Assembly (NCBI GenBank): GCA_910588185.1
Contig: CAJUQR010000004.1
Location: 146,248 to 210,247, forward strand
Direction of reading: 5' to 3'
Source of the DNA: an uncultured Peptostreptococcaceae bacterium
GTDB taxonomy: Bacteria > Bacillota > Clostridia > Peptostreptococcales > Anaerovoracaceae
DNA: 64,000 nt
The position numbers and the translations under genes are program-made. The notes below the pieces were generated by a model. It saw only the letters and a list, made by a program, of their open reading frames with translations. It had not been told where the DNA came from and made no database searches. Below are positions 4,218-9,325 of the stretch, in pieces (position 1 is the first letter of the stretch; each line of letters opens with the position of its first letter).

Positions 4218-4238
4218 GTTGGAATTTTGATTTGTCAG

Positions 4239-4278
4239 AAAATAAAAACACGCCATAGGGTGTGTTTTTTCTTTTTAA
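4239..4278 (+). repeat. Direct repeat DR-B containing a terminator hairpin (AACACGCC-atag-GGTGTGTT + T-run)
   Basis: Near-identical to 2655-2693. It also serves as the terminator for the 3339-4217 gene. Confidence 0.7.
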
Positions 4279-4316
4279 GATATAAAAAATCTAAATGATA
4301 AAAGGAGTAAGGAAAA

Positions 4317-5189
4317 ATGAACAATAAACAGGGAAATGTACATATTATCAGCGAAGATATGATTTTTGCTTATGAAAAATGGATGATTGAAGAAGAAAAA
4401 AGTCCAAATACGCAGTATAAATATTTGCAGGATATAAAAACATTTATGTTTTTTCTATCAGGCAGAGATATAGAACAACAAGTTGTTTCTAAAAGGACAG
4501 TTATAGAATACAAAGAATATTTACAAAAAAGATATGTAGTAAGTAGTATAAATTCTATGTTAGTAGCGCTTAATAGTTTTTTGAAATATGTAGGTTGGAA
4601 TGAGTGCTGTGTAAAATTAATTAAATGTCAGCGAAAAATGTTTCGAGAGGAAAGGCGAGAACTGAGCAAAAAAGAGTATCTTCGTTTAGTATCTGTAGCT
4701 AAAAAAAATCATAAAAAACGTTTGAGTTTAGTGATGGAGACCATTTGCTCTACTGGTATAAGAGTATCAGAACTTAAGTATGTAACAGCTGAGGCAGCAA
4801 AACAGGGATGGGCTGAAATTACCTGTAAAGGAAAACAACGCAGTATATTTCTTCCCAAAGATTTATGTCTAAAATTAGTAAGGTATGCAAAACAAAATAA
4901 TATTGCGTCGGGATGTATTTTTCAAACAAAGACAGGACGTCCTTTAGATCGTTCAAATATTTGGCATGATATGAAAGCATTATGCCAGGAAGCAGGTATA
5001 GAAAAAACAAAAGTTTTTCCACATAATCTGAGGCATCTTTTTGCAAAGACATTTTATGAAATAGAAAAAGACATTGTACGTTTATCAGACATTCTTGGGC
5101 ACAGTAATATTAATACCACTCGTATTTATATAATTTTCAGCCAGGCAGAGCATTCACGTAAGATGGATTCTCTTGGTCTGATTATTTGA
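4317..5189 (+). CDS. Small tyrosine site-specific recombinase (XerC/D-like, 290 aa)
   Basis: Catalytic signature TGIRVSEL (Arg), HNLRHLF (HxxR) and LGHSNINTTRIY (His plus Tyr nucleophile). An N-terminal SAM-like domain is present. RBS is AAGGAG. Confidence 0.85.
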   Translation: MNNKQGNVHIISEDMIFAYEKWMIEEEKSPNTQYKYLQDIKTFMFFLSGRDIEQQVVSKRTVIEYKEYLQKRYVVSSINSMLVALNSFLKYVGWNECCVKLIKCQRKMFREERRELSKKEYLRLVSVAKKNHKKRLSLVMETICSTGIRVSELKYVTAEAAKQGWAEITCKGKQRSIFLPKDLCLKLVRYAKQNNIASGCIFQTKTGRPLDRSNIWHDMKALCQEAGIEKTKVFPHNLRHLFAKTFYEIEKDIVRLSDILGHSNINTTRIYIIFSQAEHSRKMDSLGLII

Positions 5190-5197
5190 ATAAAAAA

Positions 5198-5225
5198 TAC
5201 AACATAATCTACATTATGTTGTATT
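5198..5225. repeat. Recombinase-type site L: 12-bp palindromic arms around an asymmetric core (ATACAACATAAT-CTAC-ATTATGTTGTAT)
   Basis: Read directly from the sequence. It starts 9 bp after the recombinase stop. Confidence 0.8.
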
Positions 5226-5255
5226 AATAAAATTATATTTAACAAATCTTGTATA

Positions 5256-5284
5256 TTTTATAATAAAAACAGTGAAAAAATCAA
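5256..5284 (-). promoter_or_regulatory. Sigma-A-like promoter inside the invertible segment, currently facing away from the surface-protein gene
   Basis: TTGATT-N17-TAAAAT on the minus strand. The context is AT-rich, so a chance match is possible. Confidence 0.3.
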
Positions 5285-5336
5285 TATTATTTGTAAAAAA
5301 TTTTTAAAATTTTACATTTTTTTGTACTAAAAATAA

Positions 5337-5372
5337 GCCGACACTACCTGCTTTCCTAGCTCGGCCTTTTTT
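5337..5372 (+). terminator. Terminator-like hairpin inside the invertible segment
   Basis: GCCGA..CTA / TAG.TCGGC stem followed by CTTTTTT. The stem is weak and the loop large. Confidence 0.3.
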
Positions 5373-5446
5373 GCATGTATTTTTTTAAAAAAATTTGTTC
5401 TTTTATAACGATTAGGAAATCAGTTTTAGCATAAAAGAAATTTTCA

Positions 5447-5474
5447 CTACAACATAATGTAGATTATGTTATAT
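5447..5474. repeat. Recombinase-type site R (CTACAACATAAT-GTAG-ATTATGTTATAT)
   Basis: Reverse complement of site L with 2 mismatches. It ends 26 nt before the TTG start of the surface-protein gene. Confidence 0.8.
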
Positions 5475-5500
5475 GTAAAGAAAGAGAGGATGTTATTATT

Positions 5501-7039
5501 TTGAATGTAACAAAAAAATTTAGAGATAATCGATTTATATTTGTTTTTATATGCATTTTAATTTGTATTGGGATGATTCCAACATCGGCGATGGCGTTAA
5601 CAGATGACGATATAGATGAGAGCGCGTCATCTCAGTTTGTAACAGTAGAGCAACTAAAGCTTTTTAACACTAATGATGAAACCGGTCAAAATTCGGCAAA
5701 GGTTTATTTTGGAAACAATAATCAGAAGTGGTGGATTGTAGGAAGTGAGGATGACAATCTTGTTCTGTTTGCAGCAGGTGGAATCTCAAGAGGCACATTT
5801 GCAAGATATAGTCCTAGAAAACAATATGACAGCGCTTGGAATTGTGAGTATGAAACTGTGCCTGTGGATGTTTATGGTAATCATTATGGTGGAAGTATAT
5901 TGAGAAAGACTTTGCAAGAACTGGAAACATCTTATTTTACCGGTGCGGAGCAAAAACTTATGAATGATACGACGGTATATACTCATGATCTAAAAAATAA
6001 TAGCGTTTATTCGACCACAGATAAGTTGTACATTCCTTATGGAAAGATAGCTGAAGGATATGATAATAAGTACGATTATATAACGGTCGGCGCAAACAGT
6101 TCAGAAAATTTAGATGAGGGGCTGCGTATATATAGTGCTTATTGGCAGGCTTTGCAGCCAATGCAGAAATTTTGGCTTCGTGAACCATATGACAACGGTA
6201 GGCAAGCTTATTATGATATATTGGTTGCGTTTAAAAAGGAAAATGATCCTTCAAATACGGACTATATTGCAAGCGACAGTAACATATCTATAAATCCGGC
6301 TTTTGAGCTGAAAACATCTTCTATATCTTTTGCATCCTCTGCACCGGCGGTATCATCAGATGGTAAGCTTGCGATGAATGATGCAATGACATTGCGATAT
6401 ACCGCTGACAATCTTGGTTTTGCGGAGGTGTCGCCTGACAAAACAAAGGTTTATTTGAAAAATGTTCCTAAAGGAACCTATTTGGTCGTACAAAACGGTG
6501 AAGGCGCATGGGCAAAAGTAATTACGAACGAAATTTCTGTTTCCGCTGGTGATATGGGAATAGATACTTTTGACAAATGTGAGGTATGGCTGGAAACAAC
6601 TGATGACGCTGAAAGAATGACATATGCGGCAATGGCAACATATAAAGATGAATATATCGTTTCATATGTATTTAAAAATAAATCTGATGAAACGATGTTG
6701 CCGAAGGAAGTAAATAAGCTGCTTCCGGATGAAAAGAGATATAAACCTGGTACAAATGTGAAAGCAGAGATGTTGGCTGTCACAGAAGTAAAAGTAAGTA
6801 ATGGAGTATGGAAGTTTTTAGGGTGGAATAAGGAAAGCGTAGATAATATAGCAGAGGATATAGCTTTTACAGGCGAATGGGAATTTAACCCTGATACAGA
6901 ACCAGGCCGTGATACATCTGTGAATGTTGCTGAAAATGATATACCAAAAACAGGTGATCAAACAAATATCGGTATTTACTTGTTGATAATAATGTTAAGC
7001 GGATTTTTTTCAGCACTTGGTGTGGCAATAAAAAAATAA
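5501..7039 (+). CDS. Sortase-anchored cell-surface protein (DUF6273-like N-terminal region, SHIRT-like C-terminal repeat, IPKTG sorting signal)
   Basis: TTG start lies 10 nt after AGAGAGGA. A signal peptide is present. The C-terminus is IPKTGD, then a hydrophobic stretch, then KK. The SHIRT-type pattern reads LPKEVNKLLP...GVWKFLGW...FTGEWEF. Confidence 0.8.
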   Translation: MNVTKKFRDNRFIFVFICILICIGMIPTSAMALTDDDIDESASSQFVTVEQLKLFNTNDETGQNSAKVYFGNNNQKWWIVGSEDDNLVLFAAGGISRGTFARYSPRKQYDSAWNCEYETVPVDVYGNHYGGSILRKTLQELETSYFTGAEQKLMNDTTVYTHDLKNNSVYSTTDKLYIPYGKIAEGYDNKYDYITVGANSSENLDEGLRIYSAYWQALQPMQKFWLREPYDNGRQAYYDILVAFKKENDPSNTDYIASDSNISINPAFELKTSSISFASSAPAVSSDGKLAMNDAMTLRYTADNLGFAEVSPDKTKVYLKNVPKGTYLVVQNGEGAWAKVITNEISVSAGDMGIDTFDKCEVWLETTDDAERMTYAAMATYKDEYIVSYVFKNKSDETMLPKEVNKLLPDEKRYKPGTNVKAEMLAVTEVKVSNGVWKFLGWNKESVDNIAEDIAFTGEWEFNPDTEPGRDTSVNVAENDIPKTGDQTNIGIYLLIIMLSGFFSALGVAIKK

Positions 7040-7333: not shown

Positions 7334-9325
7334 CTATAACCCCAGTTCCCTAAACTTGGTGGTAGGAGCGTGGCAAGCTCCGTTTTCACATATATACCAG
7401 AGAGTAATATCGTTTATAGGATAGGATGAGGTGAAAGGTGCAATTTGTGACAGTGCTTTCTGATTTTGACCAGACTTATGAATTGCGCTTAGGTTTTGCG
7501 CAGGATGCTGGCTGAGATAAGTCAGTATTTCAGCAGGAAGCTCTTCACCGGTAAAGATTAGTTCTTTGTGCGGAAAGATTGATATCATCATTGCCGATAG
7601 ACCAAAACAATGAGCAGGAGGATATTCAGCTGCTTGACCTGCAATAAAATTATTCTGTCTGTTTGATGCTTCACGAAACGAAGATTCTCCTGTAAGCGCT
7701 GCAAGTTTAGCAAGAACCATGGCTGCTGCTGAGTTTCCTGATGGAATAGCGCCGTCATAAGTATCTTTAGGACGGTGAATTAAGCTTTCCGCATCGTGAG
7801 CAGTAAGGTAATAGCCGCCGTTTTCTTTATCTTCAAACAAGTCAATCATCTGTTTTGTTCTTGATACCGCTTCTTCAAGATAATCAATTTTAAATGTAAC
7901 GTTATATAGTTCCAGCAGAGATAGTGCATAAACTGCGTAGTCGTCAAGCTGACCGGCGTTTGCAGCTTCACCGCCGCAATAACGAAGAAAGAGTCGATTA
8001 TTGCTGCCTGTCATCTTTTCATTGATAAAATTTTGTGCTTTAATAGCGGCTTTGATATATATATCATCTTTGAGTATTAGACCTGCTCTTGCCATTGCCA
8101 TTATAGTCCATGAGTTCCATGATAGTAAAATCTTGTTATCAAGATGGAGGTTGGTTCTTGATTTTCTGTATTCAAAAAGGCTCTTTAGGCGAGGGTCATA
8201 ATGGTGCTGTTCTTTGTCTGTAAGACCTATGCGGTTTGGAATATTTTTCCCTTCGAAGTTTCCTCTTTCTGTAATGTTATATTCATTGCAAAATTCTTTG
8301 CCGTCTTTTTCTCCTAGAACCTTGATTATTTCTTCCATAGTAAATACATAGTATTTGCCTTCTATACCATCGCTGTCGGCGTCCTGTCCGCAGTAAAATC
8401 CGCCGTCAGAGCTTGTTAGTTCTTTTAGAATATAGTCGGCAGTTTGTCTTGCAACAGAAGCGTAAAAAGGGTTTTTTGTGATTTGAAAAGCTTCAAGATA
8501 TGCCAGTAAGAGAAGAGCGTTATCATAAAGCATTTTTTCAAAATGAGGAACAAGCCATTTTTCATCTGTTGAATACCTGGAAAAACCTCCGCCGATATGG
8601 TCAAATATGCCGCCTCTTGCCATGGATTTCAAAGTAGTTTCAACCATGTTCAGTGCGTCAGCGTTTTGTTCATATTCGTAAAGATGCATTAGAAAAAGTA
8701 GATTATGAGGTGCAGGGAATTTGGGCGCAGAGCCGAATCCTCCCCATTTGCTGTCAAAGGATTTTAGGAGAAGTTCATATGCCTTGTGTATGAAAGATTT
8801 GTCTGCTTGACCAAGGCCGTTTTTGCTGTATTGTTTTAGCGCTGACGTAATCTTTTCGCCGGAACTGATAAGTTTTTCGCGTTCTGTATGCCAAAGATAT
8901 GAAATTTGATTGAGCAAGTCTTTAAGACCGATGTGACCATACTGACTTTCTTTCGGGAAATAAGTTCCTGCAAAAAATGGCTTTTGTTCCGGCGTCATGA
9001 ATATGGTAAGAGGCCAGCCGCCTGATCCTGTCATAGCTTGGCAGACTGACATGTAAACTGAGTCAATATCAGGTCTTTCTTCACGGTCTACTTTTATACA
9101 TACATAATCATCTAAAAGCCTTGCAATCTGAGTATCTTCAAAGGATTCGTGGGCCATCACATGGCACCAGTGGCAAGTGGAGTATCCGATACTTAAAAAG
9201 ATAGGCTTGTCTTCTTCTTTTGCCTTTTGAAATGCTTCCTCGCCCCATGGATACCAATCTACAGGATTGTCCTTATGCTGTGAGAGATAAGGAGATTTTT
9301 CATATTTAAGTTTGTTTGACATCAA
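7334..9325 (-). CDS. Thioredoxin-domain protein, YyaL/DUF255 family (N-acylglucosamine-2-epimerase-like fold)
   Basis: N-terminus reads [38 protein letters not shown], followed by a long alpha/alpha-barrel-like region. Confidence 0.85.

Follow-up and report, generated by a model that had tools for sequence, protein, structure and literature searches.

The DNA analysed here is a single stretch of 64,000 nucleotides, referred to as the window in the following, with a GC content of 37.5% from an uncultured low-GC gut bacterium of the Bacillota. At the locus under study a gene for a small tyrosine recombinase is followed by a short segment that is bounded by two inverted sites, and then by the gene of a secreted protein with a sorting signal near its C-terminus. 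The segment itself contains a promoter-like element as well as a hairpin that resembles a transcription terminator. The positions of these features are collected in Table 1.

Table 1. Features of the recombinase gene, the segment between the inverted sites and the surface protein gene (window coordinates; a slash marks the junction point)
Feature	Position	Strand	Details and basis
Xer-like tyrosine recombinase, 290 aa, presumed to invert the segment next to it	4317..5189	+	Pfam, alignment
Leftward terminator-like element	5190..5224	-	IRL palindrome hairpin, then UUUUUUAUUC
Left recombination site (IRL)	5197-5224	.	arm ATACAACATAAT, core CTAC 5209-5212, arm ATTATGTTGTAT
Sigma-A-type promoter-like element TTGATT-N18-TAAAAT	5255..5284	-	9/12 consensus match; faces the recombinase gene as sequenced
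Central hairpin, bidirectional, terminator-like	5337..5372	.	U-runs on both strands
Right recombination site (IRR)	5447-5474	.	arm CTACAACATAAT, core GTAG 5459-5462, arm ATTATGTTATAT
Ribosome-binding site of the surface protein gene	5483..5490	+	AGAGAGGA, read from the sequence; 11 nt before the TTG
Surface protein (cargo) gene, 512-aa secreted protein, SHIRT domain at aa 384-462	5501..7039	+	ORF, domain search
Predicted flipped junctions			...ATTATGTTGTAG / TGAAAATTTC and AAATATAATTTTATTA / ATACAACATAATGTAG; also written AATACAACATAATCTACATTATGTTGTAG / TGAAAATTTCTTTTATGC and AAATATAATTTTATTA / ATACAACATAATGTAGATTATGTTATATG

The recombinase gene

The recombinase matches the Pfam family Phage_integrase (PF00589) with an E-value of 3.9e-24 and a score of 85.8 bits, compared to a cut-off of 27.1, and it possesses N-terminal SAM-like domains. 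In an alignment with four homologues the catalytic residues R149, K171/K173, H236, R239, H262 and Y271 were invariant. The protein thus contains the R-K-H-R-H/W-Y catalytic domain of the tyrosine recombinase superfamily. An earlier note on this DNA had placed a small tyrosine recombinase beside the sites, and the PF00589 match together with the complete catalytic set bears this out.

Within the superfamily the protein scored below the cut-offs of all NCBIfam models that we compared. For XerA it reached 135 of the required 220 bits, for XerD 121 of 330, for XerC 110 of 335 and for XerS 58 of 267. The models for invertases of the FimB/FimE type gave 26.5 and 24.8 bits, with cut-offs of 221 and 222. 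The closest solved structures in a PDB search were an archaeal XerC-like protein, XerD, XerA and XerH, and Cre had no sequence match among the PDB matches of the recombinase. Between the window and a sister strain (see below) the recombinase gene differs by 13 synonymous and 4 non-synonymous codon changes, the latter being conservative, which indicates purifying selection on the recombinase. Around the start of the gene, at 4237-4354, we obtained a sub-threshold Rfam match to the ylbH leader (25.4 bits compared to a gathering score of 50). It overlaps a terminator at 4244-4269 as well as the gene start and is probably due to chance.

Two inverted sites flank a short segment

The left site starts 7 nt past the TGA stop codon of the recombinase gene (5187-5189), and the right site ends 26 nt before the TTG start codon of the surface protein gene (5501). 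Between them lie 222 bp, corresponding to 250 bp from core centre to core centre. When the whole 64 kb were searched with ACAACATAATNNNNATTATGTTGT, allowing up to 3 mismatches, the two sites were the only matches, with 0.00 matches expected by chance from dinucleotide-preserving shuffles of the window. In a repeat search the pair was the top-ranked and longest inverted repeat of the region (34 nt, 88% complementary, 210 nt apart). Each site is a near-perfect palindrome that can fold as a hairpin. The left site fits the family consensus tRCaACATAAT-NNNN-ATTATGTtGYa, and in the right site the outer arm carries one mismatch, a G-to-A change. With a short segment between 28-bp inverted repeats, located upstream of a candidate regulated gene, the locus has the layout of an inverton.

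The relative orientation of the two sites follows from direct comparison. The reverse complement of the left site agrees with the right site at 26 of 28 positions, compared to 24 of 28 for the two sites read in the same direction, and the cores, CTAC on the left and GTAG on the right, are reverse complements of each other. The cores are thus oppositely oriented. This orientation, the position and the 26/28 match of the right site and its distance of 26 nt from the TTG start had all been described in the earlier note and were reproduced here. For the left site, which had been said to start at 5198 and 9 nt past the stop, the existence of the site holds and both values shift to those given above.

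The sites had furthermore been termed lox-like with 12-bp arms. Symmetric arms and an asymmetric core are indeed present; the dimensions are nearer to those of dif than to those of loxP. Cre/loxP shares with the window the symmetric arms and the asymmetric and thereby directional spacer, and its inverted sites lead to inversion, as predicted for the window. However, loxP is built as 13-8-13, whereas in the window arms of about 11-12 bp surround a 4-nt variable centre, such that the sites are not of the loxP type. In dif-type sites the arms measure about 11 bp and the central region about 6 bp. By analogy, the variable 4 nt of the window sites would form, together with the flanking T/A, a 6-bp central region as in dif.

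Promoter-like and terminator-like elements of the segment

The promoter-like element of the segment is weaker than that of most relatives, with a spacer of 18 nt, no TGn motif (extended -10) and 9 of 12 consensus positions, and the local promoter scan was not enriched over shuffles. Its -10 box ends 35 nt from the left site, which is inside the family range of 26-60 nt, and reads TAGAAT in the sister strain. Neither within the segment nor within the 26 nt that precede the start codon did a sigma-A scan detect a comparable plus-strand promoter, and an Rfam scan gave no match inside the segment. A sigma-A-like promoter pointing away from the surface protein gene had been proposed before, with a 17-nt spacer and at 5256-5284. 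The minus strand and the hexamers TTGATT and TAAAAT stand, while the spacer is 18 nt and the element extends from 5284 to 5255.

The central hairpin was skipped by the automatic terminator scan because its loop exceeds 8 nt, and was folded directly. On the plus strand it has a folding energy of -8.6 kcal/mol and is followed by CUUUUUUG; on the minus strand the energy is -12.4 kcal/mol and the hairpin is followed by UUAUUUUUAG. It had previously been described as pointing toward the surface protein gene. The coordinates of that description are correct, and the hairpin is not one-way, given the U-runs on both strands. As judged from this structure, it may stop transcripts that run on from the recombinase gene, whichever way the segment lies. 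In relatives with the ON orientation a hairpin is found upstream of the promoter.

A further terminator-like element is formed by the left site itself, whose minus-strand hairpin has a folding energy of -13.1 kcal/mol (z = -4.95), with U6 behind it. An A-run and a GC hairpin lie between the recombinase stop codon and the left site in about 45 of 60 related loci, taken from the best 80 of at least 594 (see below). No T-run follows this stop-proximal hairpin, such that it is able to terminate minus-strand transcripts only. In the remaining loci the A-run abuts the palindrome of the site, as is the case in the window (5190-5196). We infer that the leftward terminator acts as an insulator, which in the OFF orientation would keep antisense transcription from the promoter out of the recombinase gene.

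The surface protein gene

The N-terminus of the encoded protein, MNVTKKFRDNRFIFVFICILICIGMIPTSAMA..., is a signal peptide, and the C-terminus reads ...IPKTGDQTNIGIYLLIIMLSGFFSALGVAIKK. The SHIRT domain was matched with an E-value of 3.3e-20. At nt 6941-6955 an IPKTG sorting signal is encoded, the sole one found within the window, and it is followed by a hydrophobic stretch and KK. The protein thus combines the signal peptide, LPXTG-like motif, hydrophobic stretch and basic tail of LPXTG-type surface proteins. Public gene calls use the same TTG start, and the 512-aa IPKTG-anchored protein with a TTG start that had been predicted earlier was recovered in both its ORF and its sorting signal. Anchoring by a sortase appears probable from these signals; a sortase gene, searched for by its TLxTC motif, was not found within the 64-kb window. 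A four-codon mini-ORF at 5491-5505 (ATG TTA TTA TTT TGA) overlaps the TTG start and could couple or dampen translation initiation of the surface protein gene.

Related loci across Clostridia

A protein search with the recombinase returned at least about 8000 clusters at E<=1e-30. Among the matches listed, the nearest non-self recombinases are about 62-63% identical, and homologues with 42-63% identity make up thousands of clusters across Clostridia. Of at least 594 loci in Clostridia that were returned by a genome scan with one genome per species and the recombinase alignment as query, we kept the best 80. In addition, a metagenome scan with ACAACATAATSTASATTATGTT provided 120 loci. About 100 of these (within the range L009-L128, e.g. 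L052:3226-10851) represent one abundant human-gut lineage, the '377' family, in which a 286-aa recombinase (45% identical) is followed by a GTAG site, a 355-nt segment, a CTAC site and a 2101-aa surface protein. The promoter of this lineage is directed to the recombinase gene in each of the approximately 100 metagenome assemblies, which are independent of each other. In other lineages (L016, L028 and L106) recombinases of 49-53% identity are followed by the same site pair.

Within the best 80 of the at least 594 loci, a site of the form xACATAAT-NNNN-ATTATGTx is located 0-100 nt past the recombinase stop codon and a second copy 220-400 nt further on. Each arm comprises 7 invariant positions (ACATAAT) and about 4 semi-conserved ones in these 80 loci. 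The 4-nt core behaves differently from the arms: in 57 pairs from the same 80 loci we counted 33 distinct kinds, none of which was palindromic. For those of the 80 loci that have at least two sites, the second core was the reverse complement of the first in approximately 57 of 59 cases, where chance would give 1/256 per locus. A core that varies between loci and is reverse-complementary within a locus has the hallmark of a crossover region, which must match between the two sites and be asymmetric. This excludes readings in which the sites are operators or terminators only.

Homologous loci were moreover found in both orientations. For L153 and L207, which come from different species, the recombinase gene (81% identity) and the downstream DNA (71%) align in plus orientation, whereas the 284-nt segment between the sites aligns in minus orientation with 84% identity. 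Two loci with three sites, L132 and L145, have the arrangements [S1]A[S2']B[S3'] and [S1]rc(B)[S2]A[S3'], respectively, with part A being 98.9% identical, which corresponds to two nested inversions. In an all-against-all comparison of 67 interiors from the best 80 of the at least 594 loci, 9 of the 37 alignable pairs were oppositely oriented with respect to the recombinase gene, and these pairs belong to at least two separate clades.

In 63 loci, again from the best 80 of at least 594, simple sigma-A scoring found one strong promoter per segment (TTGnnn-17-TGnTAnAAT), with the -10 box at 26-60 nt from one of the sites. It was directed to the downstream gene in 20 loci and to the recombinase gene in 31, and 12 loci were ambiguous by their score margin. 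The two classes of promoter direction are mirror images of each other, and the window fits the class that faces the recombinase gene.

Proposed switching mechanism

We consider it likely that the locus is a self-contained phase-variation cassette, i.e. an invertible promoter switch for the surface protein. At the level of the family this reading is supported by the comparisons above. Inversion rather than excision had been proposed from the site geometry, and the inverted cores, their covariation in about 57 of 59 loci and the segments flipped in place among relatives all agree with it. For this particular copy, the flipping as such, the exact cleavage positions, the activity of promoter and terminators and the identity of the ON state are predictions from sequence.

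In the predicted scheme the 290-aa recombinase would bind to the two dif/lox-like sites with their arms of about 11 bp (xACATAAT), and strand exchange would occur across the short asymmetric central region CTAC / GTAG. Given the inverted cores, the 222-bp segment would flip. In the OFF state the minus-strand promoter (5284..5255) would be aimed at the recombinase gene, and its transcript would stop at the hairpin and U-run of the left site. The surface protein gene would have no promoter of its own in this state, and the central hairpin would shield it from read-through out of the recombinase gene. After inversion to the ON state the promoter would be located about 35 nt upstream of the right site and would read through the site into the TTG-initiated gene. 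The resulting leader of about 80 nt would include the palindrome of the right site. The promoter pointing away, the terminator at the left site and the block by the central hairpin together suggest that the sequenced orientation is OFF. The OFF assignment made previously from the promoter geometry is thus a reasonable reading.

As a consequence of such a switch, the presumably sortase-anchored, adhesin-like SHIRT-domain protein is predicted to be phase-variable and mostly silent in the sampled gut populations. Phase variation of surface proteins bears on colonisation, immune evasion and the exposure of phage receptors.

Orientation in the species and in a sister strain

Contigs from ENA, NCBI, JGI and Logan were collected by exact-protein look-ups with the recombinase, its 99% variant and the surface protein. 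Contigs L001, L002 and L005-L008 belong to the strain of the window, and L209-L224 to a sister strain. Over 1 kb, comprising the 3' end of the recombinase gene, the switch and the start of the surface protein gene, the two strains are about 97% identical in nucleotide sequence. Both sites are conserved in the two strains. The sister strain reads GTAGTGA at the inner flank of its left site, a perfect reverse complement of the corresponding flank at the right site, which extends the inverted repeat to 31 nt there. All of the approximately 12 independent contigs of the species and the sister strain are in the OFF-like orientation of the window. Neither the look-ups nor the metagenome scan with the site motif provided a flipped orientation among the segment-spanning contigs of the species, the sister strain or the '377' family. 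An assembly gives the majority orientation only, and uniform assemblies are compatible with a flipped minority.

Logan contigs derive from a graph with k=31 and are expected to break at branch points. Three of them, L003, L217 and L227, end at the exact last base that is common to both predicted orientations. The ends read ...GTTGTA for L003, ...GTAGTGA for L217 and ...ATTATGTGGT for L227, which is from a relative with 58% identity. Such ends are no more than suggestive of mixed orientation, and they are the sole direct hint of flipping at this locus. For L003 a T/G strain polymorphism at 5224 provides an alternative explanation, and L004, L215 and L216, which end near the site, as well as L008, L223 and L224 end off the predicted base. 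Contigs from SPAdes or MEGAHIT break just past the recombinase gene in many MAGs; this is explained equally well by the repeat itself and was not counted.

The surroundings of the locus differ between strains. Between a tRNA gene at 1599-1683 (Rfam, 43.3 bits) and a conserved thioredoxin-domain gene (7334-9325) the window carries small ORFs of unknown kind and the genes of a DUF6548 protein, the recombinase and the surface protein. The upstream ORF in this stretch has either 292 aa or 317 aa depending on the strain, and a DUF5674 is present in the sister strain. The stretch may be a variable island.

Alternative explanations

The uniform orientation could also mean that the switch is locked or decaying, i.e. 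that it descended from a working inverton and shows no appreciable flipping now, with the protein being either constitutively silent or expressed in another way. Apart from the approximately 12 assemblies with one orientation, a promoter that is weaker than in the relatives and has no extended -10, as well as the mismatch in the outer arm of the right site, would agree with such a decay. We nevertheless regard it as rather unlikely, since the recombinase is intact and under purifying selection, since the sites are conserved in both strains up to the 31-nt inverted repeat of the sister strain, and since two Logan contigs of the species end exactly at the base where the orientations diverge. The majority orientation reported by assemblies leaves room for a flipped minority as well. 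A different mechanism is represented by the cwpV switch, in which the promoter lies outside the segment (here, for example, read-through from the recombinase gene could take this role) and the orientation determines whether a terminator forms in the leader. Among Clostridia it comes nearest as a precedent for phase variation of a cell-wall protein (PMC2784873), and a terminator-like hairpin within the segment and an internal promoter of only moderate consensus match would suit it. With U-runs on both strands, however, this hairpin should terminate in both orientations. The segments of the relatives hold a strong promoter at mirror-image positions, and the conserved leftward terminator makes sense only if a promoter within the segment fires leftward. 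We give this mechanism a slim chance for the window.

The palindromes could finally have a function other than inversion, be it as operators, as plain terminator hairpins or as attL/attR of an excising mobile element. Each site is indeed a near-perfect palindrome that folds as a hairpin, and the closest relatives reside on DNA resembling conjugative elements. Operators or terminators, however, give no reason for a 4-nt centre that is free and yet reverse-complementary in about 57 of 59 loci. Inverted cores cause inversion and not excision, and among the relatives the segment occurs flipped in place between collinear flanks. Readings of this kind are very unlikely, with hardly any chance of being correct. 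Based on the core covariation and the in-place inversions we rejected the operator, terminator-only, att-site and dif readings.

Comparison with known inversion systems

Taken as an invertible promoter switch, the locus can be compared with a number of described systems. The accessible part of a study on the hCom2 community describes an 'inverton group 139' with 33 invertons of about 254-257 bp in 17 strains, 32 of the 33 being in Clostridia (Microbiome 2025, PMC11892184). Nearly every copy adjoins a tyrosine-type recombinase/integrase of 'invertase group 35', and read-level orientation shifts were observed according to the same part of the text (PMC11892184). Group 139 and the family of the window are alike in size, taxon and adjacency to the recombinase and were matched by these three properties alone; with this reservation the two are probably the same family. 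The accessible text of the study contains no description of core covariation, of a leftward terminator or of three-site variants (PMC11892184).

The fimS switch of E. coli is, like the segment of the window, a short promoter-bearing invertible segment (about 300 bp) beside one or more tyrosine recombinase genes and turns a surface structure ON and OFF. It has 9-bp inverted repeats and requires IHF/Lrp as well as two recombinases (FimB/FimE). The recombinase of the window falls outside the FimB/E family, with scores far below the cut-offs of both invertase models. In C. difficile the cwpV (Cdi1) and flagellar switches invert regions of about 200 bp by means of the tyrosine recombinase RecV, cwpV encoding a cell-wall protein (PMC2784873; PMC5903667). 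The promoter of cwpV is external and control is exerted through terminator formation, whereas in the window the promoter-like element is inside the segment (PMC2784873). RecV is encoded remotely and serves several unrelated repeats, whereas the recombinase of the window is adjacent to its presumed sites, such that the two are set apart by their architecture (PMC5903667; PMC2784873).

The Xer systems, namely XerC/D-dif, XerS-difSL, XerH-difH and XerA, are similar to the window in that they provide the best sequence matches of the recombinase and in their site dimensions. XerS/difSL furthermore has its site directly beside the recombinase gene, as in the window. Xer resolvases, however, use one dif site per replicon, located at the terminus, for dimer resolution, whereas the window has two inverted sites 250 bp apart that flank a promoter-like element and would support inversion.

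A possibly portable cassette

The locus is an ordinary member of a very large switch family in gut Clostridia, and phase variation by inversion is already well established. Three of its details may so far be undescribed, namely the site grammar, the terminator that would act as insulator and the variants with three sites.

The genes downstream of the switch are diverse. Among 46 first downstream genes from the best 80 of the at least 594 loci, 7 encode SPFH/zinc-ribbon proteins and 5 TetR regulators. Other cargo includes surface proteins with BspA-LRR, SLH, collagen, cohesin or beta-helix domains, a GGDEF protein and AMP-ligases. The cassettes of the closest relatives of the recombinase (L225, L228 and L229, 58-60% identity) lie beside genes for a relaxase, a TraG/VirD4-type coupling protein (T4SS) or Toprim proteins. 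Downstream of them come Rrf2-family regulators and, behind these, a LytTR regulator or a 1409-aa SpaA-domain protein. Diverse cargo and neighbours of conjugative-element type indicate that the cassette is portable and also travels on conjugative elements, the copy in the window being one with a probable sortase substrate as cargo. One MAG contributed two loci (L175 and L208), which shows that a genome can contain more than one copy.

These observations lead to a broader reading, for which we see about even chances: the locus would represent a portable, self-insulated cassette that spread through Clostridia to thousands of positions, among them positions on conjugative elements, with copies that are orthogonal by their core and in part nested and multi-state. 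Its parts in this broader reading would be an Xer-like invertase, a leftward-only terminator, a dif-like site, a segment with promoter and terminator, and an inverted copy of the site. Through the conserved arms recombinases could be interchangeable, and the free 4-nt core could keep copies orthogonal, without recombination between different switches of one genome. As far as we found in the literature consulted, these design rules have no earlier description. The rules of the family that can be read from sequence (arms, covarying core, promoter geometry, insulating terminator) would allow ON/OFF calls from metagenome data directly, and the family could be a source of compact orthogonal inversion modules for the engineering of Firmicutes.

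Atypical members of the family

A few loci depart from the common layout. L135:3828-4267 continues past the second site and then re-enters the 3' end of the recombinase gene as its reverse complement, in the manner of a fold-back, and at L027:6552-6615 two sites with the same core are separated by just 42 nt. In both cases the assembly probably went wrong at the inverted repeat. At L072:4341-4531 there is a CTAC/GTAG pair with a distance of 167 nt, and the flanking genes encode a dockerin-like 822-aa protein on one side and a secreted 365-aa protein on the other. The locus as analysed, about 4 kb to each side of the pair, contains no recombinase homologue, and the pair is possibly an orphan switch that is served in trans. 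Finally, eight loci (L132:3828-4250, L145:3828-4250, L153, L207, L139, L159, L178 and L195) carry three sites with the same core, two of them pointing one way and one the other way, with the close pair being 33 or 63 nt apart. Rather than simple ON/OFF devices, these three-site members look like multi-state switches.
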